DNA of 32,000 nt, taken from contig JBAYVT010000002.1 of NCBI GenBank assembly GCA_041674405.1, positions 120,001 to 152,000 of the forward strand, read 5' to 3'. This document shows positions 3,336-31,600 of the stretch, one piece after another. The position numbers and the translations under genes were made by a program. Below the pieces are notes generated by a model. That model saw nothing but the letters and a program-made list of their open reading frames with translations. It was not told the DNA's origin and did not search any database. This stretch comes from Patescibacteria group bacterium. GTDB lineage: Bacteria; Patescibacteriota; UBA1384; XYA2-FULL-43-10. Numbering within the stretch: the first letter of the stretch is position 1; each line of letters starts with the position of its first letter.

Positions 3336-3411
3336 GGTCCTTAGCAATAATTTGGGCGCGCACGTCACATGACGCACGCGCCGGCTGTCTCGCCCAGTTC
3401 TCACCCTCCCA

Positions 3412-3564
3412 CTAGCTCTCGCTGCCTTCAACATCAGTCCCCCTGTACCTTGACCTTCCACACTGAAGGCAATTACCATCCGGATCCGGAGGTCGAGTGT
3501 CCCCGCAGTGAGGGCACTTGAACTCCTGCACTTCCGCGGTACCAACTTCCAGATCAACAGCCAT
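3412..3564 (-). CDS. Hypothetical 50-aa zinc-ribbon protein (MAVDLEVGTAEVQEFKCPHCGDTRPPDPDGNCLQCGRSRYRGTDVEGSES)
   Basis: Hand-translated; not in the track. A strong SD GAAGGAGGTG lies 6 nt before the ATG. CPHC-x12-CLQC is a zinc-ribbon spacing. It is in a GC-rich island, in a different frame from the miaA extension. Confidence 0.5.
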   Translation of the reverse strand: MAVDLEVGTAEVQEFKCPHCGDTRPPDPDGNCLQCGRSRYRGTDVEGSES

Positions 3565-3586
3565 TTATGGCACCTCCTTCGCCTAT

Positions 3587-3618
3587 CTTATATACCACAA
3601 ATTAGCCTCGCCTTCCAA
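3587..3618 (-). promoter_or_regulatory. Sigma70-like promoter for the small zinc-ribbon ORF
   Basis: The minus strand reads TTGGAA-(about 18 nt)-TGgTATATAAG, about 25 nt upstream of the ATG at 3564. Confidence 0.4.
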
Positions 3619-3660
3619 TGTGTTGCACAATGCCTTAATTTCAAATTACAATACATAAGC

Positions 3661-4383
3661 ATGATTAAGATATCGCATGTCACAAAAAAGTACGGCAAAG
3701 AGATTATCGTCGACGATCTTTCTCTCTCGATAAAAGAGGGGACGATTTTCGGTTTTTTGGGCCCGAACGGAGCAGGGAAGACGACTACGCTCAAAATTAT
3801 ACTCAGTCTCATCAAGGACTATGACGGCATTATTACGATCGGCGGCGAGATGACCATGGACGCAAAAACAAAAGAAAAAATTGGTTTTATGCCAGAAGAC
3901 CCCTACTTCTATGACCATCTGACCGGTTTGGAATTCCTGAAATTCTGTGGTGAACTTTTCAATTATTCGAGAGAGAAAAATAACGGATATTATCTGAATA
4001 TTCTAGACCAAGTCGGGCTGTACGATGCAAGAAGCATGATGGTGAGAAATTATTCCAAGGGCATGAAGCAGCGTCTCGGCCTCGCGCAAGCCCTCGTAAA
4101 TGATCCAGATTATATTTTTCTCGATGAACCGCTCGACGGGCTTGACCCAATCGGCCGCGCCGATATCAAAAATATCATCAAAGGTTTGAAAAAACGAAAA
4201 AAAACAGTCTTTTTTTCCTCACACATCCTCTCGGATATCGAAGAGTTATGCGATGAAATCGGCATAATTAATAAAGGAAAATTATTATATTCCGGCTCGG
4301 TGAAAAAATTCTGCCGTGGTAGCGCATTTGAAGAAAAATTTGTCGAGGTTATAAAAAATGAAAAACGTACTGGCAATCGCTAA
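3661..4383 (+). CDS. ABC transporter ATP-binding protein (ABC-2 type)
   Basis: Walker A GPNGAGKTT, signature YSKGMKQRL, Walker B YIFLDEPLDGLD, H-loop SSHIL. The start is set at MIKISHV (ATG 3661). The upstream 51 codons of the track ORF overlap the divergent promoter region and are rejected. Confidence 0.9.
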   Translation: MIKISHVTKKYGKEIIVDDLSLSIKEGTIFGFLGPNGAGKTTTLKIILSLIKDYDGIITIGGEMTMDAKTKEKIGFMPEDPYFYDHLTGLEFLKFCGELFNYSREKNNGYYLNILDQVGLYDARSMMVRNYSKGMKQRLGLAQALVNDPDYIFLDEPLDGLDPIGRADIKNIIKGLKKRKKTVFFSSHILSDIEELCDEIGIINKGKLLYSGSVKKFCRGSAFEEKFVEVIKNEKRTGNR

Positions 4384-14878: not shown

Positions 14879-16141
14879 CTATCCAATTGGGCTTATCTTT
14901 CTTAATTTCTCAATTATTCCCGGCAATACTTCCATAAGGCGATCTATTTCTTCTTCGGTGGTGTATCTCCCAATTGTGAATCGAATTGAGCTATGTGCTC
15001 TTTCTTCGGGGTATCCAAGCGCCATTATCACATGTGAGGGTTCAAGGGAACCCGATGTACAAGCCGAACCTGTAGAGGCCGCGATCCCTAGCATATCCAA
15101 ATTGAGCAGAATCGACTCGCCTTCGATGCCGGCAAATGAAATATTTACATTATTCGGGCTTCTGCAAATATCCGTGCCATTCAATTTGGCATTTGCAATA
15201 TTATCGACAATACCCCTGATTAATTTTTCTCTCAATTTCAATGATTTTTCCGTTGCATTAGTCATTTTAAGAGATGGAAAATCCTCTGACACAATCGCCC
15301 CATCGGTGTCAGCGGCATCGCGGATTACTAGTTCGGCCGCCTTGGCAAAACCGACTATGCCCGCGACATTCTCCGTGCCCGCTCGCTTCTTGTATTCTTG
15401 TCCACCACCGGTGATTTCCGGCTTAAGCGGGGTGCCTTTTTTGGCGAATAAAAGGCCGACTCCCTTCGGCCCATAAATTTTATGAGCCGTCATTGTAAGA
15501 AGATCGACATGCAAATATTTAGTTCCCATTTCGAAATACTCTGCTGCTTGCACTGCATCGGTATGGAAATAAATTTTTTGGGCATTGGGGTTTTTTTCAA
15601 GCCGACCCAGGTTTTCCTTCTCAATCATCTTGCCAATTTCGCGGATCGGCTGTGCTGTGCCAATTTCATTATTTACATACATTACAGAAACCAGGGCAGT
15701 GTTTTTACGGATTGCTTTTACTACTTGCTGGCTATTGATTACGCCATCTTGCTCCGGGCTTATGTAGGTAGCTTCGATTTTCCCCTGTTTCTCTAGATCT
15801 TTTACGGTATCCAAAACTGCATGATGTTCAAATGTTGAAGTTACAACATGAGGTTTTTTATTCATGCCTTTATAGTCTGGCAACATCGATTCGATCACGC
15901 CGCGGATAGCCAGATTATCCGATTCCGACCCGCCAGATGTAAATAGAATTTCGCTTGGAGCGCAATCAAGAAAAAATGCCAAAAATTCTCTGGCTTTGTC
16001 GACTGCCGCTCTCGCCTCCTGCCCAAACCCGTGAACCGACGAAGGATTGCCGAAACTCACGCCAAAATATGGCGTCATTGCTTCAATAACTTCCGGCGCA
16101 ACTGGCGTGGTCGCAGCATTATCTAGATATATTCTCTTCAC
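14879..16141 (-). CDS. nifS: Cysteine desulfurase (NifS/IscS family)
   Basis: N-terminal IYLDNAATTP, PLP-lysine context TMTAHKIYGPKG, and active-site loop STGSACTSG. GTG start. Confidence 0.92.
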   Translation of the reverse strand: MKRIYLDNAATTPVAPEVIEAMTPYFGVSFGNPSSVHGFGQEARAAVDKAREFLAFFLDCAPSEILFTSGGSESDNLAIRGVIESMLPDYKGMNKKPHVVTSTFEHHAVLDTVKDLEKQGKIEATYISPEQDGVINSQQVVKAIRKNTALVSVMYVNNEIGTAQPIREIGKMIEKENLGRLEKNPNAQKIYFHTDAVQAAEYFEMGTKYLHVDLLTMTAHKIYGPKGVGLLFAKKGTPLKPEITGGGQEYKKRAGTENVAGIVGFAKAAELVIRDAADTDGAIVSEDFPSLKMTNATEKSLKLREKLIRGIVDNIANAKLNGTDICRSPNNVNISFAGIEGESILLNLDMLGIAASTGSACTSGSLEPSHVIMALGYPEERAHSSIRFTIGRYTTEEEIDRLMEVLPGIIEKLRKISPIG

Positions 16142-16362
16142 TTATCTTCCTTTGATTTCTCAACGATCGATACTACTTTTCTTAAATCAGAAACGCACTT
16201 CTTGCAATTTTCCTGTTTGGACAAATTATCAAAATCAGATTTAGATATTAAATAAGCCACCGGCTTGGAATACCTGACAACCTCAAACACATCTCCGTCC
16301 TCAACTTCTTTAAGAACCTTAGAAATGTTATTTTGCAATTCGTTTACGTTGATATTTTTCAT
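16138..16362 (-). CDS. Phd/YefM-family antitoxin-like protein (no adjacent toxin)
   Basis: The N-terminus MKNINVNELQNNISKVLKEVEDGDVFEVVRYSKPVAYLISKSDFDNL matches the Phd/YefM pattern. The C-terminal tail carries CKKC. Its stop overlaps the nifS GTG (GTGA). Confidence 0.55.
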   Translation of the reverse strand: MKNINVNELQNNISKVLKEVEDGDVFEVVRYSKPVAYLISKSDFDNLSKQENCKKCVSDLRKVVSIVEKSKEDK

Positions 16363-16379
16363 TGGCTTTCGGCACTAAA

Positions 16380-16410
16380 ATTATACTCATCTAAGGTAAC
16401 ATCTTAGGTA
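16380..16410 (-). promoter_or_regulatory. Promoter -10 plus operator-like repeat upstream of the Phd-like gene
   Basis: On the minus strand TATAAT is at 16385-16380. Directly upstream are ATCTAAGGTA (16389-16398) and ATCTTAGGTA (16401-16410), which match 9/10, start 12 nt apart, and contain the inverted pair CTAAG/CTTAG. Confidence 0.35.
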
Positions 16411-16451
16411 GATTTAGTCAATAGATACAAATATAAATAATATTTAGAATC

Positions 16452-19400
16452 TTAAGATTTAGAATTTCTCTTTTCCATCTCAATCTTTTTATTTACGGCA
16501 GAAATTTCTTCATCCGTATCAAACCTTACCGGTTTTGGCAGAGTGTAACCTTCCTTGGTAGCTAAAATTGTGTACCTACCCCGTTTCAAAATCGCCGAAA
16601 ACTTACCTTTGTCATCAGTTACCGCAGTCTTTACAAGCCTTGTGTTATCTCCGGTCATTATCCTAACCAACGTTAGGCCGATAGGCTCGCCCTTATGTCG
16701 GTCTACCACCATGCTCCATGGCGACTTTCTTATGACCAGTGAGAAATTGATAACCCAAAGCAGAATATAGCCGGCAAGGATCAGATAATTTAACAAATTT
16801 GGGTCATGAATTAAATTGTTCAAGACCAATATGGTACCGGCCGTAAGTACAACAATCGAAGCATAATTGAAGAATCTTTCCATTTTTCTAAGCCAACCCA
16901 AGATTGCATGAATACCAGAAAGGCTTTTGCCATTTATACTCATTATGATCGTCGGCACCAAAAATCCTTTGGTATAGCTATCAATCTCATATATTTTCCC
17001 TGTGTCAAAATCATAATATTGATCCGGTTTTGGTGCGAGCTGGTACTTGTCTTTCTTCGCGATGATTTTGTATTTGCCCGGAGGTTCGGCGAATCCGTAC
17101 ACGCCTGATTTATCGGTGGTTGTTGTCTCAATAACCCTTTCTGTGCCATCTTCGCCTACTTTAATCAAGCTAACCATCGCTCCAGAAAGCGGCAAACCGG
17201 TTCCATCCTCGAGCACTTGGCCCCATTTTTTGCGTTTCTTTTTAACCGTACCGAAAGATAGAATGGAATAAACAATTATATGAATGACTTCCTTGAGTGA
17301 GAATAAAGTTATTAAGTTTGTTGCGGGTGCCAATCCGGCGACAACTACTGCCATGCCCAGAGCTGCTGCGGCAGTCACTGGCGGAGCAGCCTCTTTTGAG
17401 ATACCAACAGCTGCATAAACTTTTTCTATTCCCCCTGCAACAATATCGATTGAAACCGCCACATCTTCGACGCCGCCGACAATGCCACCAATAATAACTT
17501 CACCGATTGTTTCTTTTCGTACATTTACTGACGCAGCAGCCTTCACATCACCGAATGAAGCTTGAACGGTGTTTTCAAATGAGCCAACTTCCTTACCTGC
17601 GGTGAATAATCCGGTTTGGTCAATCTCCCCGCCACCATTCATAACCGACCACACGATAATTGCTGTTGGAATTTCTGAATCATCTGAGGCAAAAGCTTTT
17701 GCACTAAACTGCACGGAGTCTTCAACTTTTATTTTCGCACTTGTCGGTGAAATGATAATGTATGATGCAGTTTTTTCCGGATTTCCCAGAGTTGTCACCT
17801 CAGACGCAGTAGAAAAATCAGTTTCAACGTTGCTATTATTTCTTGCCTTAAGCCTATAAGCATAATTCGTAGAAGCTGCAAGGCCTGTGTTTATAAATCC
17901 GTCGCTTCCACCCCAGTCGGCATACAATTGCCAATCGGGACTATCGGAAAATGCCCCATCGGAATGCCTGACATACTTACCTGCGGTGTCATTGTAAATC
18001 GCATATCGTGTGTTAGCTGGGTTGCCGTTTTGGTTAATCGCAATTTTTACTGATGACTCGGAAACTACTGAAAGAATTGGGGCATCTGGTGTGTTCGCAA
18101 GAGTATAAGATGTAGCAAAATTTGACTTTTCCGTTCCTTTCCTATTGGTCACGGTAACTTGGCGAGTATATGCCGTATTCGGAGCAAGAGATTGTTCTAG
18201 CCAGGACGAGGCAGAAGCTGCAAGTGTTCCCGAGAGCGGATTGCCAGCGGCATCTAACACTGCCCAACTGGTGTGATCATCGTCGGTATTTGACCAAACC
18301 CAATTAATCTGGCTGGTAACAATGTCTGTTCCCCTGAAATCTGTAGAGGGTGTAGGCCCAAGGCAATTCGCCGTTGTGAAATTTATGATTGCAGAATAAT
18401 TCCCCGCGCCATTCTGGTTTGACGTTGCGGACACCTTGGCGTAATACTTTGTTTTTCTTGCAAGGCCCGATAAAGAAGTGGCTGTTGTGCTGATATCCGA
18501 AATTGTGCCTTTATTTGAAGCTCCGGAATCCGTTCCGTACGAAAGAGTATATTTATCCGCGCCCTCTGGCGCAATCCATGTCAGGTTCGCCGAAGTTCTG
18601 CAAACGGCATTTGCTTCTAGGCTCGCTGGAGCAGCTGGCGGAGTGACTTTTGCCGAAGATGGAGAATAAGTTGTGTCGGTATTGTCCCCATTTCTTGCTT
18701 TGGCCTTGATCCAATACTGGGTATTTGGATCAAGATTAGCCAATGTATATGATGTACTTGTCTGCCAGGACATGCCGGCGGGATCGGTAAAATCCGTGCC
18801 ATTTATTGAATATTGGATCCAATAGTTTGTTCCTGATGGATTCAAACTTGGGCTAATTGTTCCTGTTACGAAATATGCCCCCGCCACCGTTGAAACCGTC
18901 GGCATATTGGCAAGCGTGTACTTTGGAGATGAATAGGCGCTTGTTGAGTTGCCGGCGTCATTAAACGCAACAACTTTAGCACAATATTGTGTATTTATAT
19001 CCTTACCATCAACGTCTTGCGAGGTTTCCCCGGCACCAGTCGTATAGTCGGGAGAATCTGGATAAGAAGCCTGTGAACAATCAGAATTCGGAGTGGTAGA
19101 AATATAAACCTTGAATCCGGTTTCATCAGATGAGTTGTCGTCCCAAGTCACTTGGAAAGAATCGTTTTGGATGGTGCCTATTGCTGCATTAGTTGGCGCA
19201 CTCGGCGCTGTAACACAAGAGCCGGTGGGAGAAATATTCCAATCGGTATTACTTCCCCCATCCGTAGAATAAGTAGCACAGAAAGAGGCACCCGAATTGG
19301 TAGAATTTGAGATGGTGGCGTACGAAATAGTTGCGGTGGCCGGGTTAATATTCCAGCCACCAGAACCACCAGACCTCTTAAGAACTACATGGCTTCCCGA

Positions 19401-22400
19401 AGTTCCGGTTACCGTCCATGTGCCAGATATCGTTTGGGTCGAGCCCGCAGAAAAGGATAAGGTTTTGCCTGCAGTAGCGGCAGTGAGGTTATTAAAAGTC
19501 GTATCTCCCTCTATCAAGGAGTCACCAGTTAGCGTAACTGTACCGCTCCCAGGAGTGAAGATACCGCCTGCATGGTTCCAACCGCCAGATACACTCATGG
19601 TGGATGGAGCACTGAAGCTAGCATTACCGTTTAAGATGAAATTACCAATGTTCATCGAAGGGTTATTTGTGATTCCATCAACATCGGTCTGGTTGGTTCC
19701 ATCACCAATTGTAAGATTGTTAGTAACACCAAAGCTACCGGAAGATAGAGTCAAAGTTTTGTTTCCAACAAAGCTCTGCCAGATAAAACCGGTCATATCG
19801 CCAAAAGAGTGATAAGGACCTGAACCAACATTATAGGTACCAATGACGGCACCAGTCGAGCCGTTAAGCTTTGTTATGGTGTTGCCGCCAATGCTCGTTA
19901 CCCATACATTGCCGTCGCCATCAATTCCCGGATGGTCGCCATTGCCGATCGAATAAGTTCCGATTACTGCACCAGTCGAGCCGTTAACTTTGTAGACCGT
20001 TCCGCTATTAACAACCCAGACATTGCCGCTGCCATCAACTGCCAGATTAGCACCAGGAACCGAGTAGATATCAATGACAGCGCCGGTCGAACCGTTAAGC
20101 TTGGTAATGCCAATATCGCCGTCGCTAGCCGTCCAGACATTCCCATCACCGTCGACTGCTATGCTAAAAGGAGCGCCGTTAACCGAATAAGTGCCGATCA
20201 GTGCACCAGTTGAGCTGTCAAGTTTAGTAACGTTACCACTTCCGTGATTGCAAATCCAAACATTGCCACTACGATCAGCCGCCACTCCCGAAGGACTAGT
20301 ACCCGTTGAATATGTGCCCATGACTGCACCAGTCGAGCCATTAACCTTATTAATATGGCTGCTATCGTAGGGGACCCAGACATTGCCAGCATTATCAACG
20401 CCCGGGTTACCACCACCGACCGCATAAGTGCCGATCAGTGCGCCGGTCGAACCATTGAGTTTAGTAACGTTGCCGCTGTAAGGATTGCCGACCCAGACAT
20501 TGCCACTGCCATCAACTGCCACACCATAAGGACCAGTACCCACCGCGTAAGTTCCAATGACGGCACCAGTTGAACTGTTAAGTTTGGTTATATTGTTGCT
20601 ACCGCTATTAGTCACCCAAACATACGGTGTTACCGCTGGATCCAGCAATTCTAGGTTATAATAATTTGCCGCCGTAATGTTTGTGTTAGAAGAAGCACGA
20701 TATATAAAGGTAGAAGTCGAAGCAGTAAATGTACCCGTTTTAACAAACGGCGTGCCCGAACCGGTCAAAGTTATTGTCCGATTTGAAGCATCGAAGGTAC
20801 CAGCATTGATCGTCAGTATGTTTGTAGTTGTGATATCCCCGGCTGCAGTGAAAGTCGTTCCCGCATGATCAAGGTAAAGATTGTAGTAAGTGGTCGCCGT
20901 AATATTAGTTGCCAATGCTCCGGTATACTTGAGGGTTGATGTGCCCTCTTGGAAAGTTCCGGTTACTACCAATGGCGTTCCTGGCGCGGCCAAAGTAATC
21001 GTTCTGGAGGATGCAGCAAATGTGCCGGCATTGATGGTAAGGACTCCATTGATTGTGATATTTCCGGCAGCAGTAAAGGTTGTGCCGGTATGGTCTGCAG
21101 CGTAGAGGTTGCAATAGGTAATAGCATTAATGTTTGTTGCGCTTGTTCCTTGGAATTTGACTGTCGATGTACTTTCGGTAAATGTGCCGCTGATGGATAG
21201 TGGATCACCTGATTCTGTCAAAACTAAGGTAGTATTATCCAGATTGACAACAGCAGTTGCCGGGATTTTAAGATTTGGGATAGTGGAGGTGGGAGCAGAT
21301 GATGAATTAGGTCTCCAGGTATCAGTGCCTATGACATAGAGTATCTGGGAGGTTAGAGTTGCTTGATTGTAGGGCATAGCTAGGTCATTGGTTGCATTAC
21401 CAATATCAAAGAGGATATCAGCATCAGACGAAACTGAACCATCGTATTGTGATAAATCGGTATTGGATAGTGTTTGGGCAGTACCATTACCGACGACCAA
21501 ATGCTGCTCAAAGAGAGTAACTCCAGTAATATCTCCCGATGTGTACTTGGTAACAGCATTGGCTCGATGGGATTCAGTCGCGCCATCGATGAATACCGTA
21601 ATTACATCACCGGCAGAGGGTTCGGTAACGCCAGAAATCGTCCAGGAACCAGAAGCAGTGGTGCCTGTAGCTGCATCCAAGGTGCCATTGATCGCTACCT
21701 TGACCGTCTCACCATCAGCACAAGCGGTTGATTCATCATACTGCTTACAAGTGCCGGAGATAGAGAAGGATGAACAGCCACTTGTTACAGTTGGAGCAGG
21801 AAGGGTACCATTGAACGAGGTCCAAGTCCCAGTCGTTGGCAAGACAGTGGGAGCACCGGCACTACCCCAGTCCACATAAGCCGACTGATCAGCAGGCGCA
21901 AGAAGTTTGCTGGTGTCCGACAACAGGTACCAACTACTGTCCCATGGATCTACTGCCAAAACCCTATTACTTGTATTGGTGTAATAAGGATTACTCCTAG
22001 CATCTACACTCGCATAAGTATACGACCCATTATAGCTTGAATCGCCCGCTCCAGAAAAAGTATACGACGAACATGCGGAGCATGATCCGGTTAAACTAAT
22101 ATTCCAGCCGGTATTTCCCCCGCCGTCAACTGAGTAAGTCGCACAGAAACTACCTGTATTACTAGACTTAGAAACATTGGCGTAGGATATTGCAACATTA
22201 TTACTTGCAGATAAATTCCAGTTGGCACCGCCCGATGGAGCTAAAGTAATTAAGTTACCGGAAGTCCCAGCAATATTAATTGCATAATTGAAATTATAGT
22301 TTGAACCCGAGTTGAAAGTTAGGGTTGAGGGCGCAGTTGTGTTGGTAAATGTACGCGTGACCGACGTTGCCCCAGTGAAGGTGAAATTTGTATTAGCATG

Positions 22401-25400
22401 CTCAGCCGTAAGGTTGTAATAAGTTACTGGTGTAATATTTGTTGCGGAAGAACCTGTATATTTTATCGTTGAAGTCGAGTAAGTAAATGTACCTGTGGCT
22501 ACGAAAGGTGTACCTGATCCAGACAAAGTGATGGTTTTATTTGATGCATTAAATGTGCCGGCATTTATTGTCAAAACATTGTTTGCGGTGATGTCGCCCG
22601 CCGCAGTGTAGGTTTGGCCAGCTTTATCGATGTAAAGATTGTAATAGGTCGCAGAAGTTACATTAACCGGACCTGTACCTGTGTATTTTACAGTTGAAGT
22701 AGAAGCGGTGAATGTTCCGGTTTTAACAAACGGCATGCTAGTTCCAGATAAAGTAATTGTCTTATTTGATGCATCAAAGGTTCCGGCATTGATGGTAAAA
22801 ACACCAGTTCCGTTTGAACCAGTTGAGATATCACCGGCTGCTGTAAAAGTTGTTCCTGCGTGATCTAAATAAAGATTATTATAGGTAGTTGATGCAATAT
22901 TAGTCGCAGAAGCGCCTGTGTATTTGACTGTGCCAGTCATACACTGAAATGTACCGTTGATCACAAACGGCGTACCAGAACCGGAAAGGGTGATGGTACC
23001 TGTCGGCGAATCATTAAATGTACCAGCATTAACGGTGAAAACATTTGTTGATGTAATATCCCCTGCTGCGCTAAAGATGGTCCCTGCACGATCTAAATAA
23101 AGATTGTAATAGGTAGTCGCTGTAATATTCGTTGCCAACGAGCCAGTATATTTAACTGTGGATGTAGAAGGTGTAAAAACGACATTATTTACAAAAGGAG
23201 TACCTGATCCAGACAAGGTAATAGTTTTATTGGACGCATCGAAAATCGAGTCATTGGTCAAAACATTAGTGACATTTATATCGCCCATGGCTGTAGATAC
23301 TGCTGTGGTTACTAAGTGGAGGTTGTAATAGGTGGTAGAGGCAATGTTTGTTGCCGCTGCGCCGTAATATTCTACGGTTGAAGTTGATGCCGTAAAAGTA
23401 CCAGTAACAACAAATGGCGTTCCCGTTGACATGAATGTAATAGTCTTATTAGAGGCATCAAAGGTGCCAGCATTGATGGTAAAAATATTTTCCACCTTGA
23501 TATTTCCAGCCGCAGTAAATGTAGTACCTGCATGGTCCAGATACAGATTATAATAACCAGGAACCATTCCCGAACCCATTGCAGTTACGTTTGTCGCCGA
23601 AGCACCGGTATATTTGATCGTTGAAGTTGAAGATTGAAACGTTCCGTTATTAACAAATGGCGTGCCCGAACCAGATAATGTGATTGTTTTATTGGATGCA
23701 TTAAATTCACCAGTGGTAATGCTTAAGACACCAGATACATCAATATCGTTATTTGCTGTCCAAATCCCCGAGCCATCATTGAAGGTCAAATTATTAAAGG
23801 CCGATCCTCCCGTCATATTTCCGGAAAGAGTTTTATCAGCTCCACCCGTCTGAAAAGTAACGGTTCCGGAATTGTTGTCAAATGTTCCGCTTGAATGATT
23901 CCAATTTCCATTAACAATAAAATTATTAGATGATGCGGGCGCACTTAATGACCCGCCCGAAATTGTGACATTACCAGCACTAATATCATGTGCCCCAGCG
24001 GTTAAGGTACCGGATGAAACAAGGAGATTGTTTGTAACATCAATATTGCTGGAAAGAGACCAGGCTGAAGATGGGATCGAATAATAAATCGTGCCTCTTA
24101 CATAATTTATAATTGCATTTGAAACAGATGGAGTTATTTTCTTAATTGTCATCGCAACGCCAAAGCTTGAATCGTTAACATCATTTGGCGTCCAAGTTAA
24201 TCCCCACAGATTTCCATCCCCACCAAACGGAACATAATCCTCTGTCCCCGACCATAATGCATCCGCAGATTGATTGGTGCCCCCAATGGTACCAGACTTA
24301 ATGATTTCAATAATATCATCGGAAACAGGAGGCGAACTACCCATCCTTTTTGCTTCCATTTTAATACCTGTAACCGTTGCATTGGTTGGAATATTAAAAC
24401 CAAAATTTGTCGCTTTTAGATAATTAGAGCGTTTTCCTTGGGGAATACCAACAATTCTCGCATAATTTCCATCATCAGCAGTGATATCTTCGGGAGTTGA
24501 CCAAGGACCATCTCCATAGCTTGCATCATTGGTTCCTGTTCCACATCCCAATGTGGAACTAGTACTTCCCCCGCCGTTCTCACCTGCGATTGTAAGATTA
24601 TAAAATTTCTGCCCAGAACCCAATATGATTGAGAAGTCTCCGCTTGTCCCATTAAAATTTATTGTAGAATTTCCTTCATTGAAAGTAACATTTGAAGAAT
24701 CCCAATCACCTGCAATATTAATTATGTGGCTTCCAGGGCTAAAGCTACCTGACGTCATAGTAAAACCATCCGCAATCGTAATATCTCCAGCTGCAATAAA
24801 GTCTGTATTCGCATGGTTGATGACTAAATTATTATACGTCACGGAAGCCAAATTTGTATCTGATGATCCTTCGTAGGAAATTGTTGAAGTTGACGGAGTA
24901 AAGGTACCGGTCACAACAAACGGGGTTCCACTCCCTGATAAAGTAATGGTTTTATTGGAAGCATCAAATGTGCCTGCATTGATAGTAAGGACTCCAGAAA
25001 CGGTAATGTTCCCTGCTGCAGCAAAGGTAGTACCAGTCTTGTCTGCCGCGTAGAGATTGTAATAAGAAAGAGCATTAACATTCGTAGCGCCTGATCCCTG
25101 GAATTTAATGGTGGAAGTGCCAATTGTGAAGGTGCCGGTGATAGAAAGTGGTGTGCCGGAGGCGGTTAATGCTAGTGTTGTGCCGGTAAGGTTGACGATG
25201 GCTGATGTCGGAATTACAAGGTTAGAAATGGTGGATGTTGGAGCATCAGTAGCAGCCGGTTGCCAAGTGTTGGAAGCCAAAACATAAAGCTTCTGGTCGG
25301 TATCTGTTTGGGTGCCTGACTCGGGCAGTGTTAAGTCTTTGGTTGTGGCATTAACTTCAAAGAAGATATCTTCATCAGACGAGACAGAGTTATCGTATTT

Positions 25401-28400
25401 CTCCATATCAGCATTTGAAAGAGTTTGGTTATCAGCTGAACCGATGGATAAATGTTTTTCATAAAGTGCTATGCCGGATACATTACCGGAGACATACTTT
25501 GTCACTGCATTTGCTTCATTGGCATCAGCAACACCATCGACAAAGATGGTGATAGTGTCGCCAGCCGATGGGGCTGTTACTCCGGTGATAGACCAGGACC
25601 CGCTTGAAGTTGTACCGGTAGCCGCATCGAGGCTCCCATTGATTGCTACTTTGATCGTTTCGCTGTCAGCACAATTCGAGGATTCGTCATATTGTTTGCA
25701 GGTACCGGAGATGGAGATGCTGGCCGGCGGAAATGCCCAATGATGGTTATTTCCACCGTCATATCCGCCAGTCGTGGCATTTACCAAGCTTCCTCCAGTT
25801 GCATCGGAATCGGTGACATTAACATAAGAAGCAGGTGGGCTATCCTGGACAACATTAAAATTCCAATGGTTGGTAGGTGTAGATGAAACCATAAATATTC
25901 TAGTACCTACTGCTCCGCCATTGATATCAAGGCCCATGATTGAATAAGTTGATCCAGCATGGAATGTAAGTTTAGAGGAAGGGGTAGTATCAGTAAAGAC
26001 CCCATTGATAGTTGCCGAATCTGCAAAATAAACACCATTTGCCGACGCATTAGTAATAGTAATGCTGTTAAAATCATGATTTCCATTTGTTCCACCAGCA
26101 GTGATGGTCTGTAAATCACTACCATCCAAGGTTAGTGTTCCGGTACCAGAAGTAAAGATGCCAGTGGCCGAATTCGTATAATCGCCTGCAAGATAAAATG
26201 CAGCCGTACTTGAAGCCGTGAGAGTATTACCAGCGTCAATAATAACATCTCCATCAACGTTAACTATGGGATCGTTTGTTTCGAATGACAATACGGCAGT
26301 TAATGCGCCTCCTCCAACATGCAAATTATTTGAAACATTTAAAGTGCCTGCCTGAACATTATGGGTACCTGAAAAATTTTCACGCGCTATCTGAAGGTTA
26401 TAATATGTAGTCGCGGTTACATTTACAGCGGCGCCGACTGGGTCCGGGCAATCATAAAATAATGTTGAATTGTTGGCAGTGAAAGTGCCGTTGATCACAA
26501 AAGGAGTGTTAGTTCCTAATAGTGTAATTGTTTTATTTGAAGCGTCGAATTCACCTGCATTAATTGTTAAAAGATTTGAAACAGTCATATCCCCAGCCGC
26601 GGTAAAAGTCGACCCAGTTCGATCAAGATAAAGATTGTAGAATGTCGTCGCCGTCACATTTGTCGCAGATGAACCCTTATACTGAACGGTAGATGTGCCC
26701 TCCTGAAAAGTAGCGTTTATATTCACAAAAGGCGTGCCTGAGCCATTCAAAACAATTGTTTTATCGGAGGCATTAAAGGTTCCTACATCTAGCGTCAAAA
26801 CGCTGCCAACGGTAATATTTCCAGCTGCGGTAAAGGTGGTACCAGTATGAACCAAATATAGATTATAATACGTCGCACTAGTTACATTGGTAGCGCTCGA
26901 TCCGGCATACTTTATGGTTGAAGTAGCTTCTTGAAAAGTACCATTTACAACAAAAGGTGTACCAGAACCATATAGATAAACTGTCTTATCCGATCCGTTA
27001 TATATCGTCCCGGTCTGAATAGTGAAAACTCCGTAGACCGAGAACGAGCCGGAAGAAAGCGGAGTAAATGTCGTGCCCGAATGGTCGAGGATTAGATTGT
27101 GGAACCCGAGTAACGCAACGTCAGTTGCTGACGCACTCTGATATGTGACGGTTGAAGTGTCGTAATTGAAGGTACTGCCCGTCTCCATTCTAAGAGGCCT
27201 CGACGAACTTTGTCCTGAGCCAGTAATTACTAAAGAATTATTATCCAATGTCATCGTAGACGATGCTTCGGCATATGATTTCGGCACAGTTGATGTGGTT
27301 CCACCACCGGATGCAGGCCGCCATGTATTATTTGCCTTAATTATAATCTTTTGGTCTGCATCAGTTTGGGTTCCGACTGCCGGCAGGGTTAGATTGTTTG
27401 ATCCGTCAATTTCGAAAAAGATATCTTCATCGGAGGAGACGGAATTATCGTATTTAGAGATATCGTTGTTCGATAATGTTTGATTATCGTCAGAACCTAG
27501 ATACAAATGCTTTTCGTAAAGGCTAATTCCTGTAATATTGCCCGAACCATCGTATTTGGTAACAGCATTCGCTTCGTTACCGTCAGCCACTCCATCGATA
27601 AATACGGTAATTGTGTCCCCAGAAGCAGGTGCTGTAACACCGCTTATGCTCCACGAACCTCCGGATGTGGTTCCGGTTTGGGCTTGAATAGTACCATTTA
27701 CCGCAACTTTTACAGTCTCTGAATCAGCGGCATTTGTCGATTCGTCATATTGCTTAGCAGTCCCTGAGATTAAAATTGTGGCAGGCCCACCTCCGCCTTC
27801 AGAAATAATAACCCCCGGCTCGACTTCTCCTGAAGCATCCCAGTCGTAAGGAGTCGGGTCACTAACTGGATCAGCATTAAACCAAGTATACCCAGGGTAA
27901 AAACTACCCAAAGTTGATGAAACAGCCCAAGATCCTCCCATATTTCCACTAAACCAAAGATAAGAGTTATTTTCATTTTTATAGACAGGGTACGGCGACG
28001 AACCGATATCTCCAAAGTATTGATCGTTATATGCAAACGTACCATTTGCATTCGTATTACCAGCATTTGTGCCTGTATATGTATGGCCCGGATCTCCTCC
28101 CGGCGTTACGCCGCTTGGCGCCGGAGCGGTTCCCAGATTGGCCGTCCAGCTATTGCTTCCGGGAAGCGCGCCCTCCATAAGATAATAGTGTACATCCATC
28201 ATCGCATCATTAAGAACGTCGCTAAGCATATATGCTCCGCCCCCGTCCCAGTACAAGTACATATTATTAGCGTTTTTCCAATAGTCACTTCCATAGGCAT
28301 CCGTTCCGCCGTAAGAGTATTCGCCGTTATAATTGGCATCTCCTGCTCCCGCAACAGTCCATGTGGTTGTATTAGCAGCTAGAGCTTTAGGAGGCTTTTC

Positions 28401-28628
28401 AAAATTGATTGATGGGTTGACCATAACAAACCCAAGAACCGAAATCGCCACAATATATAAGGTCAAGAACATCCAATGAAAGGGTGACGAAGATCCCGAA
28501 AGATGCCACTTGTAATACCAACCGAATTTCATGCGAAGAGCATTGTGCCATGGAGAAAATCGGGAGAATGTGGTTCTCGTGCTTTTTTGTACTTTCATTA
28601 TTTCCCTGTCAAGCTCCACAGTTGTCAT
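16452..28628 (-). CDS. Giant (4058-aa) multi-domain surface protein
   Basis: 12,177-nt uninterrupted ORF. It has an N-terminal TM (FHWMFLTLYIVAISVLGFVMV), three 153-154-aa modules, and at least 15 copies of a roughly 75-aa unit with a beta-helix look. A roughly 8-blade propeller-like block has the pattern G.P.G.A.D..GNVWV....N.VTKLNGSTGA.IGTY. FN3-like units (..SFQVTWDDNSSDETGFKVY..) and a Big_2-like domain follow. The C-terminus is TM, CarboxypepD_reg-like, 2 TM, CarboxypepD_reg-like. Confidence 0.9.
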   Translation of the reverse strand: MTTVELDREIMKVQKSTRTTFSRFSPWHNALRMKFGWYYKWHLSGSSSPFHWMFLTLYIVAISVLGFVMVNPSINFEKPPKALAANTTTWTVAGAGDANYNGEYSYGGTDAYGSDYWKNANNMYLYWDGGGAYMLSDVLNDAMMDVHYYLMEGALPGSNSWTANLGTAPAPSGVTPGGDPGHTYTGTNAGNTNANGTFAYNDQYFGDIGSSPYPVYKNENNSYLWFSGNMGGSWAVSSTLGSFYPGYTWFNADPVSDPTPYDWDASGEVEPGVIISEGGGGPATILISGTAKQYDESTNAADSETVKVAVNGTIQAQTGTTSGGSWSISGVTAPASGDTITVFIDGVADGNEANAVTKYDGSGNITGISLYEKHLYLGSDDNQTLSNNDISKYDNSVSSDEDIFFEIDGSNNLTLPAVGTQTDADQKIIIKANNTWRPASGGGTTSTVPKSYAEASSTMTLDNNSLVITGSGQSSSRPLRMETGSTFNYDTSTVTYQSASATDVALLGFHNLILDHSGTTFTPLSSGSFSVYGVFTIQTGTIYNGSDKTVYLYGSGTPFVVNGTFQEATSTIKYAGSSATNVTSATYYNLYLVHTGTTFTAAGNITVGSVLTLDVGTFNASDKTIVLNGSGTPFVNINATFQEGTSTVQYKGSSATNVTATTFYNLYLDRTGSTFTAAGDMTVSNLLTINAGEFDASNKTITLLGTNTPFVINGTFTANNSTLFYDCPDPVGAAVNVTATTYYNLQIARENFSGTHNVQAGTLNVSNNLHVGGGALTAVLSFETNDPIVNVDGDVIIDAGNTLTASSTAAFYLAGDYTNSATGIFTSGTGTLTLDGSDLQTITAGGTNGNHDFNSITITNASANGVYFADSATINGVFTDTTPSSKLTFHAGSTYSIMGLDINGGAVGTRIFMVSSTPTNHWNFNVVQDSPPASYVNVTDSDATGGSLVNATTGGYDGGNNHHWAFPPASISISGTCKQYDESSNCADSETIKVAINGSLDAATGTTSSGSWSITGVTAPSAGDTITIFVDGVADANEANAVTKYVSGNVSGIALYEKHLSIGSADNQTLSNADMEKYDNSVSSDEDIFFEVNATTKDLTLPESGTQTDTDQKLYVLASNTWQPAATDAPTSTISNLVIPTSAIVNLTGTTLALTASGTPLSITGTFTIGTSTIKFQGSGATNVNALSYYNLYAADKTGTTFAAAGNITVSGVLTINAGTFDASNKTITLSGSGTPFVVTGTFTPSTSTISYEGSSDTNLASVTYNNLVINHANTDFIAAGDITIADGFTMTSGSFSPGSHIINIAGDWDSSNVTFNEGNSTINFNGTSGDFSIILGSGQKFYNLTIAGENGGGSTSSTLGCGTGTNDASYGDGPWSTPEDITADDGNYARIVGIPQGKRSNYLKATNFGFNIPTNATVTGIKMEAKRMGSSPPVSDDIIEIIKSGTIGGTNQSADALWSGTEDYVPFGGDGNLWGLTWTPNDVNDSSFGVAMTIKKITPSVSNAIINYVRGTIYYSIPSSAWSLSSNIDVTNNLLVSSGTLTAGAHDISAGNVTISGGSLSAPASSNNFIVNGNWNHSSGTFDNNSGTVTFQTGGADKTLSGNMTGGSAFNNLTFNDGSGIWTANNDIDVSGVLSITTGEFNASNKTITLSGSGTPFVNNGTFQSSTSTIKYTGASATNVTAMGSGMVPGYYNLYLDHAGTTFTAAGNIKVENIFTINAGTFDASNKTITFMSTGTPFVVTGTFTASTSTVEYYGAAATNIASTTYYNLHLVTTAVSTAMGDINVTNVLTNDSIFDASNKTITLSGSGTPFVNNVVFTPSTSTVKYTGSLATNITATTYYNLYLDRAGTIFSAAGDITSTNVFTVNAGTFNDSPTGTITLSGSGTPFVINGTFQCMTGTVKYTGASATNIASTTYNNLYLDHAGTTFTAAGDISTGSNGTGVFTINAGTFDASNKTITLSGTSMPFVKTGTFTASTSTVKYTGTGPVNVTSATYYNLYIDKAGQTYTAAGDITANNVLTINAGTFNASNKTITLSGSGTPFVATGTFTYSTSTIKYTGSSATNITPVTYYNLTAEHANTNFTFTGATSVTRTFTNTTAPSTLTFNSGSNYNFNYAINIAGTSGNLITLAPSGGANWNLSASNNVAISYANVSKSSNTGSFCATYSVDGGGNTGWNISLTGSCSACSSYTFSGAGDSSYNGSYTYASVDARSNPYYTNTSNRVLAVDPWDSSWYLLSDTSKLLAPADQSAYVDWGSAGAPTVLPTTGTWTSFNGTLPAPTVTSGCSSFSISGTCKQYDESTACADGETVKVAINGTLDAATGTTASGSWTISGVTEPSAGDVITVFIDGATESHRANAVTKYTSGDITGVTLFEQHLVVGNGTAQTLSNTDLSQYDGSVSSDADILFDIGNATNDLAMPYNQATLTSQILYVIGTDTWRPNSSSAPTSTIPNLKIPATAVVNLDNTTLVLTESGDPLSISGTFTESTSTVKFQGTSATNINAITYCNLYAADHTGTTFTAAGNITINGVLTINAGTFAASSRTITLAAPGTPLVVTGTFQEGTSTLKYTGALATNITATTYYNLYLDHAGTTFTAAGDITTTNILTINAGTFDASNRTITLTGSGTPFVKTGTFTASTSTFIYRASSNTNITAANYYNLELLDPAVTPYVWVTNSGSNNITKLNSSTGAVIGTYAVGTGPYGVAVDGSGNVWVGNPYSGNVTKLNGSTGALIGTYAVGGGNPGVDNAGNVWVPYDSSHINKVNGSTGAVMGTYSTGTSPSGVAADRSGNVWICNHGSGNVTKLDSSTGALIGTYSVNGAPFSIAVDGDGNVWTASDGDIGITKLNGSTGAVIDIYSVPGANLAVDGSGNVWVVNSGTVYKVNGSTGAVIGTYSIGNGDHPGIDGDGNVWVTSIGGNTITKLNGSTGAVIGTYNVGSGPYHSFGDMTGFIWQSFVGNKTLTLSSGSFGVTNNLTIGDGTNQTDVDGITNNPSMNIGNFILNGNASFSAPSTMSVSGGWNHAGGIFTPGSGTVTLTGDSLIEGDTTFNNLTAATAGKTLSFSAGSTQTISGTWTVTGTSGSHVVLKRSGGSGGWNINPATATISYATISNSTNSGASFCATYSTDGGSNTDWNISPTGSCVTAPSAPTNAAIGTIQNDSFQVTWDDNSSDETGFKVYISTTPNSDCSQASYPDSPDYTTGAGETSQDVDGKDINTQYCAKVVAFNDAGNSTSAYSSPKYTLANMPTVSTVAGAYFVTGTISPSLNPSGTNYWIQYSINGTDFTDPAGMSWQTSTSYTLANLDPNTQYWIKAKARNGDNTDTTYSPSSAKVTPPAAPASLEANAVCRTSANLTWIAPEGADKYTLSYGTDSGASNKGTISDISTTATSLSGLARKTKYYAKVSATSNQNGAGNYSAIINFTTANCLGPTPSTDFRGTDIVTSQINWVWSNTDDDHTSWAVLDAAGNPLSGTLAASASSWLEQSLAPNTAYTRQVTVTNRKGTEKSNFATSYTLANTPDAPILSVVSESSVKIAINQNGNPANTRYAIYNDTAGKYVRHSDGAFSDSPDWQLYADWGGSDGFINTGLAASTNYAYRLKARNNSNVETDFSTASEVTTLGNPEKTASYIIISPTSAKIKVEDSVQFSAKAFASDDSEIPTAIIVWSVMNGGGEIDQTGLFTAGKEVGSFENTVQASFGDVKAAASVNVRKETIGEVIIGGIVGGVEDVAVSIDIVAGGIEKVYAAVGISKEAAPPVTAAAALGMAVVVAGLAPATNLITLFSLKEVIHIIVYSILSFGTVKKKRKKWGQVLEDGTGLPLSGAMVSLIKVGEDGTERVIETTTTDKSGVYGFAEPPGKYKIIAKKDKYQLAPKPDQYYDFDTGKIYEIDSYTKGFLVPTIIMSINGKSLSGIHAILGWLRKMERFFNYASIVVLTAGTILVLNNLIHDPNLLNYLILAGYILLWVINFSLVIRKSPWSMVVDRHKGEPIGLTLVRIMTGDNTRLVKTAVTDDKGKFSAILKRGRYTILATKEGYTLPKPVRFDTDEEISAVNKKIEMEKRNSKS
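19790..20630 (-). repeat. Coding repeats: about 8 NHL/YncE-like beta-propeller blades (about 40 aa each)
   Basis: A recurrent DNA word cc(c)agacattgcc(a/g)ctgccatc(a/g)ac is the reverse complement of D(G)SGNVW(V). The protein period is ..GNVWV.N..(S)GNVTKLNGSTGA(V/L)IGTY.VG..P.G(V/I)A(V)D... Boundaries are approximate. Confidence 0.7.
21303..21761 (-). repeat. Copy 3 of the 153-154-aa module (ISGTCKQYDESTACADGETVKVAINGTL...TDTWRPNS)
   Basis: Aligned by eye with copies 1 and 2. The codon phase agrees with the ORF. Confidence 0.8.
22395..23765 (-). repeat. Longest run (about 6-7 units) of the roughly 225-nt / 75-aa tandem coding repeat
   Basis: The unit is TFTAAG(N/D)IT...VLTINAGTF(D/N)ASNKTITLSGSGTPFV..GTFT.STST(I/V)KYTG.SATN(I/V)T..TYYNLYLDHAGT. 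It splits into three sub-units of about 25 aa. Boundaries are approximate. Confidence 0.7.
25251..25712 (-). repeat. Copy 2 of the 154-aa module (ISGTCKQYDESSNCADSETIKVAINGSL...SNTWQPAA)
   Basis: Aligned by eye; phase consistent. Confidence 0.8.
27309..27770 (-). repeat. Copy 1 of the 154-aa module (ISGTAKQYDESTNAADSETVKVAVNGTI...NNTWRPAS)
   Basis: Aligned by eye; phase consistent. Confidence 0.8.
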
Positions 28629-28643
28629 TCCGTTTTATATTTA

Positions 28644-31600
28644 TTAGGTAATTGATTTTTTCTTTAGTTCCAACTTTTTACGAAGTGCAGCCATATTATC
28701 TTGATTGGCAAATTCCACCGGATGATCAAGCTCATATCCCTCCTTCGCTGCAAAAATGTTATATTTGCCTTTCCTTAACATAGCAGAGAATTTTCCCTTT
28801 TGGTCCGAAACAGTAGTTCTGACTAGTTTGTGGCTGTCTGAATTCATCACCCGAATCAAGGTTAGAGGGACCGGCTCTCCGGTATTCGATTCAGCCACAA
28901 TACTCCATGGCGAATTTCTAATGATGAAAGATGCGTTGATAATCCAAAGCAAAAAGTATCCAACAACAATAACGTAATTTAAAAGAGTGTGCTCGTGTAT
29001 GACGTTATTGGCCGCTAATATTGACCCGAGTGCAAGTAATACGAATGAAAAATATACAAAATATCTTTCTAATTTCCTAAACGATGCGACTAATTTTGCG
29101 ATATTACCGAGCTTCTTTCCGTTGACGTTCATAATAATTGTGGGAACAATCAAACCTTCTTCGTAGCTCAAAACATTAAATATCTTTTTGGGGTCAAAGT
29201 TATAAAATTGGTCTTCAATAGATGCAACCGTGTGTTTTTCTTTGCTCGCAATGACACGATATTTGCCAGGTCCAGCAGCAAAACCATATACCCCGTCTTT
29301 ATCAGTAAATGACGATTCTATGACTTTCTCAGTATCAGCATCGTCCACCTTAACCAGGCTTACCTGAGCCAGATATAAGGGCATTCCTGTTCCATTTTCA
29401 ATTACTCTTCCCCATTTTTTCTTCTTTCGTTTTAAAGTTCCAGCCGAAAGAATCGAGTAAGACAAAACATGATATATTTCATTCAGAGAAAACAGCGATG
29501 ATGCTGTGGCCATCGGAGTCATTGCAGCTGCCATTCCAGCAGCACCCAGCGCTGCAGCTGAGGTTATTGGGGTCGCTGCTTGTTTAGATATCCCGACCGC
29601 TTGGTATATTTTTTCAATTTGTCCTGCAGTGGTATTAATGACACCAGAAATTAACGTCGCACTCTTAACAATTCCATCGACTAAATTATTAATGATTGTA
29701 TCGTTTTTTATAATAACGGTGGCGAAAGATTGGCTCTCACCCACAGAGGCTTCAATTGTATTATTATATGTTCCAGTATCTGGTCCCGCAGTGAAAAATC
29801 CATTTTTATCGATTGCTCCGCCTCCATTTACCACTGACCAAACAATATTGACGTTGGATATTTCTTTGTTATCTAAAGTGAATGCTCGGGCTTTGAACTG
29901 AAGGGTTTCATTTGGCCCGATTGTGGCGGTTACCGGATCAATGGCGATTGAAGCAATATTTGAAACAGGGCTATCTCCACCTTTTGGACTATCTGGAAGT
30001 GTTAAATTCTCTCCGGGCGATGAGAAAGAAGTTTCTATGCTATCTCCATTTTTTGCCTTAACCAGATAATCATATTGCGTGCCGACCAAAAGATTGTAAT
30101 TAATAATGCCCGAACTTCCCCCCCACACGTTTCGCGTTTGCCAAACGGCGCTATTGCCCAGGGATCCATCAGCTTGCACATACTTTCCGGAAGTTTGATT
30201 ATAGATAGCGTATTGGGTCGAAGGCGGATTGTTATTTGAGTTGATGATGATCTTTAAAGAATTACTAGATAATGCATTGACCATCGGTGCATTTGGTTGA
30301 TTAGCCAGCGTGTAGAAAGGAGCAGTATATGATCCAGGCGAGTCATTACCAGAATTGGTTGCCGTAATTCTGGCGCAATATTGAGTATTAACACTTTTTC
30401 CTGAGATAAATTGCGAGGTCGTATTTGCACCCAAAGCATAATCCGGGTAATCCGGATATGAGGCAAACTCGCAATTATCACTTGTGGCAGTTGAAATAAA
30501 GATATTAAAGCCAGTTTCGCTTGAAGAGTTATCGATCCAATTCAGAGTGAAGAAAGTTGTGTCCACCCCTACAACCGAAGCCCCTGTGGGGGCAGCAGGG
30601 GTCGCTTCGCAGATCGTAGATGAACCAATCTGCCAGCCAATATTACCCCCCACATCAATAGAATAGTTTGCACAGAATTGGATTCCTGAATTAGTTGATT
30701 GAGAAATTGAAGCGTGAGAAACTACGGCTTTCGCCGGATTTATTATCCAATTTCCTGAACTGCCAGACCCTCGTAGATTAATATTGTGGCCACTAGACCC
30801 AGAAATACTCCATGTGCCGGTAATTGTTTGGGTTGAGCCGGCTGAAAAAGATATGGTCTTTCCACCCGTAACGGCCGTGAGATTGTTGAAAGTGGTATTT
30901 CCCTGAATCAGAGAATCGCCATTCAAAGTTACTGTCCCGTTGCCGGGAGTGAACGTGCCACCATTATTGTTCCAGCCGCCCGAAAGATTAATGTTTGAGG
31001 GAGCGTTAAAGTTCGCATTACTCTTTAATGTAAAATTTCCGCCTATGTTAATTGTTGGATTATTTGCCAATCCGTCAACAGTGGTTTGATTAGCGCCATC
31101 ACCAATCTGAAAATCGTTAGCGATATTAAACGTACCATTTGATAAAGTTAAAACTTTTGGATCGGCAAAAACTTGTCGAGCAAATCCTGTGGAATCTCCC
31201 ATTGAAATATAGGGGTTGCTAACCGGGTAGGTACCGAGAATTGCCCCTGTTGTTCCACTTAACTCCTTAATATTATTTGTATTGACCACCCAAGCATTGC
31301 CATTTTGGTCGATTGAGATACCATTTGGCCAACCATCTCCGTTAGCAAAGGTGCCAACAATATATGTACCCAGGACAGCACCGGTTGAGCCATTTAGCTT
31401 GCTCACGCTGTTGTCATAATGATTAGTGACCCAAACATTCCCAGATTGGTCAATGGCTATTCCATAGGGGTTTCCATGAACGGAATATGTACCTATAGTG
31501 GCGTTCGTCGAACCGTTAATTTTAGTAACGCTGTAATTGTCCCAGTTTCCTACCCAAGCATTACCGCTGCTATCGACTGCAATGCCCATTGGCCTGCTGC

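Follow-up and report, generated by a model that had tools for sequence, protein, structure and literature searches.

Several described systems come close to the element reported here, a C-terminal module of about 330 amino acids (aa) shared by two giant genes, A and B, in a 32,000-nucleotide stretch of a Patescibacteria genome (GCA_041674405.1, contig JBAYVT010000002.1, forward-strand positions 120,001 to 152,000; the whole stretch is called the window below). Gram-positive LPXTG anchors are, like the module, terminal on Sec-exported adhesin-like proteins, consist of a hydrophobic segment followed by a Lys/Arg cluster, and are reused on many ectodomains. In LPXTG anchors, a conserved motif directly precedes the hydrophobic segment, and only a few residues follow the basic tail. 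The module, in contrast, has no such signature; its basic cluster is followed by two more helices and two folded domains, about 260 conserved residues in all, and no sortase logic is apparent. Domains of the CarboxypepD_reg (PF13620)/transthyretin-like, CnaB, and SdrD-B types share sequence family and fold with the two small domains of the module, D1 and D2. Known members serve as stalks or regulatory domains outside the cell, in the periplasm, or in a lumen, whereas D1 and D2 are fused to the ends of membrane helices via a basic P-W-G junction, with a predicted location in the cytoplasm. Mycoplasma cytadhesins (P1, MgpB type) combine a large ectodomain, a C-terminal transmembrane (TM) segment, and a cytoplasmic tail. 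The module proteins would resemble them as large adhesins with a cytoplasmic C-terminal part in the sole membrane of a small, host-attached cell; however, cytadhesin tails are single-TM and proline-rich, the module has three helices and two sandwiches, and there is no sequence relationship. Patescibacteria (Candidate Phyla Radiation, CPR) live attached to other cells and have many large surface proteins to fasten and organise.

The module is classed here with the C-terminal membrane anchors of surface proteins, and its one unusual predicted feature is the cytoplasmic placement of transthyretin-like domains. On balance, we favour the reading that it is a portable C-terminal membrane anchor of Patescibacteria surface proteins with D1 and D2 inside the cell; it appears to be a device by which exported proteins are attached to the membrane throughout the lineage.

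A and B lie on the minus strand, co-directional and head to tail; B, cut by the contig end, has at least 2437 aa on the source contig (ENA ERZ27247358 k141_1736407, 137.9 kb; B at L125 2-7315). A first-pass annotation of the window, made from the sequence alone, held that both giants end in the same module. This is borne out by a gap-free alignment of the last 368 aa of A with B (51% identity, E 7e-134), and all peptides quoted there are found in frame on the minus strand. The similarity of the two genes reaches beyond the tail, over more than 1,300 aa, the visible part of B aligning to A 2688-4054 save for an fn3 insert. A and B are therefore paralogs that do not, by themselves, demonstrate portability.

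Mere paralogy of two neighbours is ruled out by the wide distribution of the module. An exhaustive profile search of 1.84 billion representatives, seeded with A and B, yields 3621 matches at E<=1e-3, 1823 at E<=1e-10, and 53 at E<=1e-30. Among the best 150 cluster representatives, 109 contain the whole module from H1 to D2 (the elements are defined below), always at the extreme C-terminus; it ends 0-149 aa, mostly <10 aa, from the end of host proteins that are 326-5960 aa long. The full-length match at the extreme C-terminus is seen in A and B as well. The conserved unit comprises about 310-330 aa and is far more conserved than the ectodomains, while the N-terminal parts are mutually unrelated, including Calx-beta, Big_12, Big_13, fn3, InlB B-repeats, PEGA, and giants with GLUG and fn3. 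An N-terminal signal peptide or anchor is present in 60 of the 96 members starting with Met, and another 13 carry the K/R-rich motif and TM segment of A; a few proteins consist of little beyond the module itself. The module is a portable C-terminal tail, always terminal, and fused to many unrelated Sec-exported or pilin-like ectodomains, in agreement with the supposition of a portable anchor in the first-pass annotation. One pilin-like member (P0161; locus L001, 7388-8938; 516 aa), encoded among glycolysis genes, combines the canonical type IV pilin leader MKKNSARG|FTLPELLVV with the C-terminal module, and would be tethered at both ends. Other searches retrieve little: a word-indexed search gives no match with a single tail and only 14 proteins with a 30-sequence profile, and one related-locus search finds no relatives in genome or metagenome collections.

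Members with a name come from Candidatus Berkelbacteria and the 'Patescibacteria group'. When one genome per GTDB species is scanned with a hand-made degenerate D1 motif, at least 120 loci match. The full module is present in 92 loci, 90 of them among the scan matches listed and two (L001, L002) from protein look-up. The CPR titles of scan loci are Saccharibacteria, Uhr-, Magasanik-, Nomura-, Doudna-, Vogel-, Lloyd-, Moran-, Campbell-, and Dojkabacteria, Paceibacterota, and Parcubacteria. Among the scan matches listed, all informative titles of full-module loci are Patescibacteria, save 15: 14 'uncultured Gammaproteobacteria' and one 'Methylomirabilis'. The modules of these loci are 40-82% identical to CPR-titled ones, with one at 31%; hence, the 15 titles are doubtful and appear wrong. 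The loci concerned are L043, L056, L068, L077, L079, L080, L086, L090, L094, L095, L104, L106, L116, L121, and L044; the L090 module is 82% identical to that of L039, and L094 is the weaker case with 31%. The 'uncultured Gammaproteobacteria' records belong to the TPA_asm SRP..._co series, some with contigs or chromosomes of ~0.9-1.0 Mb. Loci titled Clostridium, Gemmatimonadota, Arenimonas, and Bacteroidota are chance motif matches that lack the module.

The module consists, in this order, of an Ala-rich hydrophobic helix (H1), an amphipathic helix (H2), a (K/R)5-W-G cluster, D1, a basic amphipathic helix, a two-helix hairpin (H3, H4), an R-K-S-P-W-(S/G) stretch, and D2 (Table 1). This anatomy is based on an alignment of 111 sequences, to which the family statistics below refer, and on an AlphaFold2 (AF2) model built from 30 diverse modules (mean predicted local distance difference test score, pLDDT, 82); AF2 run on a two-sequence alignment of A and B gives a pLDDT of only 47. 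In the model, D1, H3, H4, and D2 have pLDDT 81-97, H1 and H2 only 42-60. The order TM, sandwich, two TMs, sandwich given in the first-pass annotation is correct; the start of the module shifts about 50 nt upstream of the boundary drawn there because a conserved amphipathic helix (A aa 3727-3743) precedes H1.

Table 1. Elements of the module in A, its copy in B, and the genes that carry them. Positions refer to the window; KD, Kyte-Doolittle hydropathy; muH, hydrophobic moment.
Feature	Position	Strand	Basis or remark
Conserved amphipathic helix, module start, A aa 3727-3743	17400..17450	-	Periodic hydrophobic columns in 111 members; AF2 helix 2-14
H1, A aa 3751-3770, Ala-rich, uncharged, ends P-x-x-N	17319..17378	-	KD 1.98, muH 0.15, pLDDT 42-60
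H2, A aa 3772-3794, amphipathic, conserved P-E..R/H	17247..17315	-	muH 0.33, crude Hessa sum 6.7, column statistics
KKKRKKWG, A aa 3796-3803, basic stop-transfer cluster and W-G junction into D1	17220..17243	-	Column statistics, AF2
D1, A aa 3803-3898, CarboxypepD_reg/transthyretin-like beta-sandwich	16935..17222	-	PF13620, pLDDT 81-95, Foldseek
Basic amphipathic helix, A aa 3900-3920, continuous with H3	16869..16931	-	Mean 3.9 K+R; muH 0.30; one 42-residue AF2 helix 173-214
H3-loop-H4 TM hairpin, A aa 3921-3966	16731..16868	-	KD 1.79 and 2.20; pLDDT 88-96
RKSPWS, A aa 3967-3972, basic P-W-G/S junction into D2	16713..16730	-	Column statistics, hhalign
D2, A aa 3972-4058, CarboxypepD_reg-like sandwich, basic, reaches C-terminus	16455..16715	-	PF13620/PF13715; pLDDT 88-97
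Same module at C-terminus of B	28647..29639	-	51% identity, gap-free; PF13620 twice
Gene A	16452..28628	-	4058 aa
Gene B	28644..>32000	-	Truncated by window end
K/R-rich conserved N-terminal motif and strong TM, A aa 1-70	28419..28628	-	KD 2.33; 8 K/R vs 3 D/E before TM

A Kyte-Doolittle scan finds four hydrophobic segments in the tail of A (aa 3751-3769, 3772-3790, 3919-3940, and 3948-3966). In H1, Lys, Arg, Asp, and Glu are nearly absent across the family, and the H1-to-H2 region comprises about 40 residues with almost no Lys, Arg, or Asp. H1 is the likeliest single membrane crossing, from outside to inside; H2, whose hydrophobic moment of 0.33 compares with 0.15-0.19 for H1, H3, and H4, is probably embedded flat in the inner leaflet. 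The basic cluster has five columns with 69-93% Lys/Arg, followed by Trp (87%) and Gly (99%), and D1 begins its first strand at this Gly. The hairpin is marked by Gly in H3 (93%), and by Tyr (80%) and Trp (64%) in H4; H3 and H4 are connected by a short P-N..N loop of 7 residues with 0.5 K+R, compared with 3.9 and 3.0 in the flanks. D2 begins five residues after H4. When the first helix-sandwich unit is compared with the second by hhalign, both junctions are aligned (probability 99.9%, E 1.3e-31), which shows D1 and D2 to be duplicates, the basic P-W-G junction included.

CarboxypepD_reg (PF13620) is matched twice per tail, with 59.4 bits in A and 53.4 bits in B (gathering threshold 32.3); in both tails Pfam matches the sandwiches only, with nothing for the hydrophobic parts. 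D1 and D2 have the seven-strand transthyretin-like beta-sandwich fold of this family, and their conserved residues are its generic structural ones. Foldseek relates them to SdrD B, CnaB2, SpaA pilin, and the transthyretin-like domain of carboxypeptidase D, with NOMO also among the matches in PDB; for carboxypeptidase D and CnaB2 the root-mean-square deviation is 2.4-3.3 over 84-94 columns. Sequence and fold searches of PDB give matches to single sandwiches, none with the helix-sandwich arrangement. The sandwiches are ordinary PF13620 members; neither Pfam nor NCBIfam has an entry for the composite module, which matches none of the sorting or anchor domains described there. No description of the module was found in the literature searched, including a Saccharibacteria genetics paper that was checked.

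The C-terminal position and the hydrophobic stretch followed by a basic cluster might also suggest a sorting signal recognised and removed by a sortase- or exosortase-like enzyme, as with LPXTG or PEP-CTERM. This is very improbable: no conserved signature precedes H1 (the best column reaches 42%, and [LIVF]P.[TSA][GAN] occurs in 5/111 members); PEP-CTERM, PGF-CTERM, GlyGly-CTERM, and MYXO-CTERM have no NCBIfam/TIGRFAM match at E<=1 in either tail, nor does any other NCBIfam sorting signal; and the residues following the basic cluster are conserved and well folded. With no motif found, a sortase-type signal was discarded.

D1 and D2 must share one side of the membrane because they flank a tight hairpin: the loop between H3 and H4 is short, D2 follows closely after H4, and in the AF2 model D1 runs into the helix that becomes H3. 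We consider the cytoplasm to be the likely side. Charge, composition, and parity of the N-in, ectodomain-out arrangement all point to it as the most likely location. The family means of K+R in the flanks adjoining D1 and D2 are 5.2, 3.9, and 3.0, compared with 0.5 in the H3-H4 loop and 1.8 in the flank before H1; the excess on the D1/D2 side is positive in 111/111 members (mean +8.8), hence, the positive-inside prediction of the first-pass annotation holds family-wide.

The composition of D1 and D2 (K+R 11.6% and 15.5%, respectively; charged residues 24-26%; S+T+N+G 24%) is close to that of the cytoplasmic enzymes encoded in the window (11-15.5%, 24-33%, and 16-26%), and differs from that of the ectodomains of the same proteins (5.0%, 14%, and 39%) and of homologous sandwiches inside the ectodomains (4.4%, 13.6%, and 36%). 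K+R of D2 is 20% in A, against the family mean of 15.5%. A composition classifier, trained to separate CPR cytoplasmic open reading frames (ORFs) from ectodomains, reaches a balanced accuracy of 0.92 in cross-validation. It assigns a cytoplasm-like character to D2 in 84% of members, to D1 in 61%, and to the control extracellular sandwiches in 16%; P(cytoplasm-like) is 0.99 for D2 of A. Composition thus favours a cytoplasm-like character, clearly for D2 and to an intermediate degree for D1.

As for parity, signal peptides, pilin leaders, or basic N-tails with a TM segment all place the segment before H1 outside; with one crossing in H1/H2, the basic cluster would therefore be inside. The N-terminal TM of the 4058-aa protein noticed in the first-pass annotation is recovered by the hydropathy scan (aa 52-70), and the first 70 aa of A are predicted to fix the N-in, ectodomain-out orientation. 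P0005 shows the full pattern in miniature, with a basic N-tail, a TM segment, an acidic loop of 45 aa, H1/H2, and RRKKR. Where tails follow D2, they are K/P-rich and disordered, with no further TM segment.

Several points weigh against this placement. Its weak point is that D1 and D2 are inside only if the marginally hydrophobic, Ala-rich H1 makes one crossing. On a crude Hessa scale, H1 and H2 have family medians of 3.7 and 6.7, respectively, compared with 1.45 for H3, 1.9 for H4, and -1.7 for the N-terminal TM of A; neither H1 nor H2 of B reaches KD 1.4; and AF2 is unsure of both helices. The first TM of the first-pass annotation is therefore weak. The median P(cytoplasmic) of D1 is 0.57, and only 0.32 for the window's own D1; the structural relatives of the sandwiches are all extracytoplasmic. 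With regard to the anchor reading, proteins with little besides the module exist, so it may have a function beyond anchoring.

The same portable module may also be considered with the opposite topology, D1 and D2 being extracytoplasmic, membrane-proximal stalks and only the H3-H4 hairpin dipping into the membrane. H1 and H2 would then not span the membrane, or would themselves form a hairpin, and the basic clusters would bind anionic lipid or a wall polymer on the outer face. The weak hydrophobicity of H1 and H2, the extracellular location of the CarboxypepD_reg, CnaB, and SdrD-B relatives, and the ectodomain-like score of D1 in the window are in line with such an arrangement, as is the resemblance of the H1-P..N-H2 segment to the H3-P-N..N-H4 hairpin. 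However, in 111/111 members about 12 Lys/Arg per molecule would then be on the outside, with next to none inside; the composition of D2 and of most D1 copies is cytoplasm-like, unlike that of homologous extracellular sandwiches; and in A and P0005, which have a strongly basic N-tail and an N-terminal TM, an acidic loop between basic ends fits an odd number of crossings. We regard this topology as unlikely, albeit the strongest competitor among those discussed here. The cytoplasmic placement proposed in the first-pass annotation is partly supported: charge, composition, and parity favour it, the marginal H1 and the intermediate D1 do not.

If D1 and D2 are inside, the ectodomain would be exported first. 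The uncharged H1 and H2, together with the five or six Lys/Arg, would halt the transfer, with H1 spanning the membrane and H2 and the basic cluster remaining on the inner leaflet. D1 would fold in the cytoplasm, H3 and H4 would insert as a hairpin with the short loop outside, and D2 would fold on the cytoplasmic side, right at the membrane. The same (K/R)n-P-W-G junction connects either sandwich to a helix end; therefore, both would sit firmly against the inner face. The module is proposed to hold large adhesin-like proteins in place in the sole membrane of these cells, the folded cytoplasmic sandwiches possibly serving as translocation stoppers and pull-out resistors ('rivet heads') that compensate for the weak first helix; proteins bearing load during attachment would be clients of these stoppers. 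D1 and D2 may be docking surfaces, too. The rivet or stopper role is purely conjectural, which likewise counts against the anchor reading in this form. The concept of a folded element behind the membrane helping an adhesin anchor to withstand pulling has a possible parallel in AtaA-TpgA, in which a periplasmic partner protein is reported to raise the resistance of the adhesin anchor to extraction (PMC13082670). There, a beta-barrel in the outer membrane works with a separate protein in the periplasm, and the similarity is by analogy only.

A further reading is that of a transmembrane coupling device, in which D1 and D2 would attach to a conserved partner in the cytoplasm, or to the giant's own conserved N-terminal motif there, and link contacts of the ectodomain to the cell interior. 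The conservation of the module far above that of the ectodomains and the existence of module-only proteins agree with this, as does the presence of a conserved K/R-rich N-terminal cytoplasmic motif in 13 module proteins besides A. The motif reads LD..I..IQKSTRT.F..F.P.HN.LR.KF.WYYKWH, with invariant S16, T17, H28, R32, W37, Y38, Y39, W41, H42, and H51; it has no Pfam match at E<=10, and a word-indexed search with it gives only six short fragments, one of them from Candidatus Berkelbacteria. Together with the C-terminal module, it may form a pair of cytoplasmic elements. By extension, both ends of the 3,600-aa surface loop could come together in the cytoplasm at a single hub for sensing or transmitting host-contact force; such an inside-outside connector would give ultrasmall episymbiotic bacteria a link of the integrin kind, although we deem it, like the coupling device in general, improbable. 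Neither tail has an enzymatic or known signalling domain in Pfam or NCBIfam, the conserved residues of D1 and D2 are those expected from PF13620 structure, and the gene neighbourhoods offer no conserved cytoplasmic partner.

All ORFs of module-bearing loci were clustered. No conserved cytoplasmic gene adjoining the module genes was found in 92 loci, and no fixed partner is seen around P0161, around P0154, or in the window. One subfamily shows a conserved co-directional order, [C1a][C1b], module protein (650-1200 aa), and a C2 giant (~2040 aa), with C1 upstream in 28/53 evaluable loci and C2 directly downstream in 21/66. These conserved neighbours are themselves exported: C1a, C1b, and C2 all have signal peptides, and C1b has a C-terminal TM segment followed by RRRR. 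None of the three has a Pfam match. This points to a part of module proteins in surface assemblies. The neighbourhood check suggested in the first-pass annotation thus reveals a conserved surface-protein operon in one subfamily, but the window genes are outside it, no relative of C1 or C2 being present in the window. Loci with this cluster include L002, L011, L020, L035, L039, L043, L057, L090, L104, L116, and L120. C1a and some module proteins start with a repeated S-x-N-Y-x-L...GG motif.

As a single, easily recognisable tail, the module would serve CPR as LPXTG serves Gram-positive bacteria; it would allow one to list the membrane-anchored surface proteins of any CPR genome and to flag candidates for host contact. 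Work on cultivable Saccharibacteria, be it localisation, pull-down, or deletion, would have a defined handle in D1 and D2. A cytoplasmic location of the sandwiches, once confirmed, would mean that a membrane anchor has taken up, on its inner face, a fold otherwise considered extracytoplasmic.

Concerning the remainder of the window, A is on record as a 4055-aa version with a GTG start, the exact 4058-aa product being absent from the record. An fn3 block at aa ~3334-3469 is present in A and missing from B; several repeated blocks are common to both (40-54% identity), and the visible part of B contains NHL/beta-propeller repeats. The neighbours of A and B are bacterial housekeeping genes (NifS, NifU, FolD, MnmA, RecG, ComEA). 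A 74-aa ORF at 16138-16362 on the minus strand lies between A and NifS, overlapping the start of the latter by 4 nt; on the source contig it is recorded as a PhdYeFM antitoxin (PF02604), with no adjacent toxin partner visible. The GC skew of the plus strand changes from -0.16 over the module-coding end of A (16000-18000) to about +0.05 over the ectodomain-coding part (18000-26000), and this flip mirrors the sharp change of amino acid composition inside this one gene.

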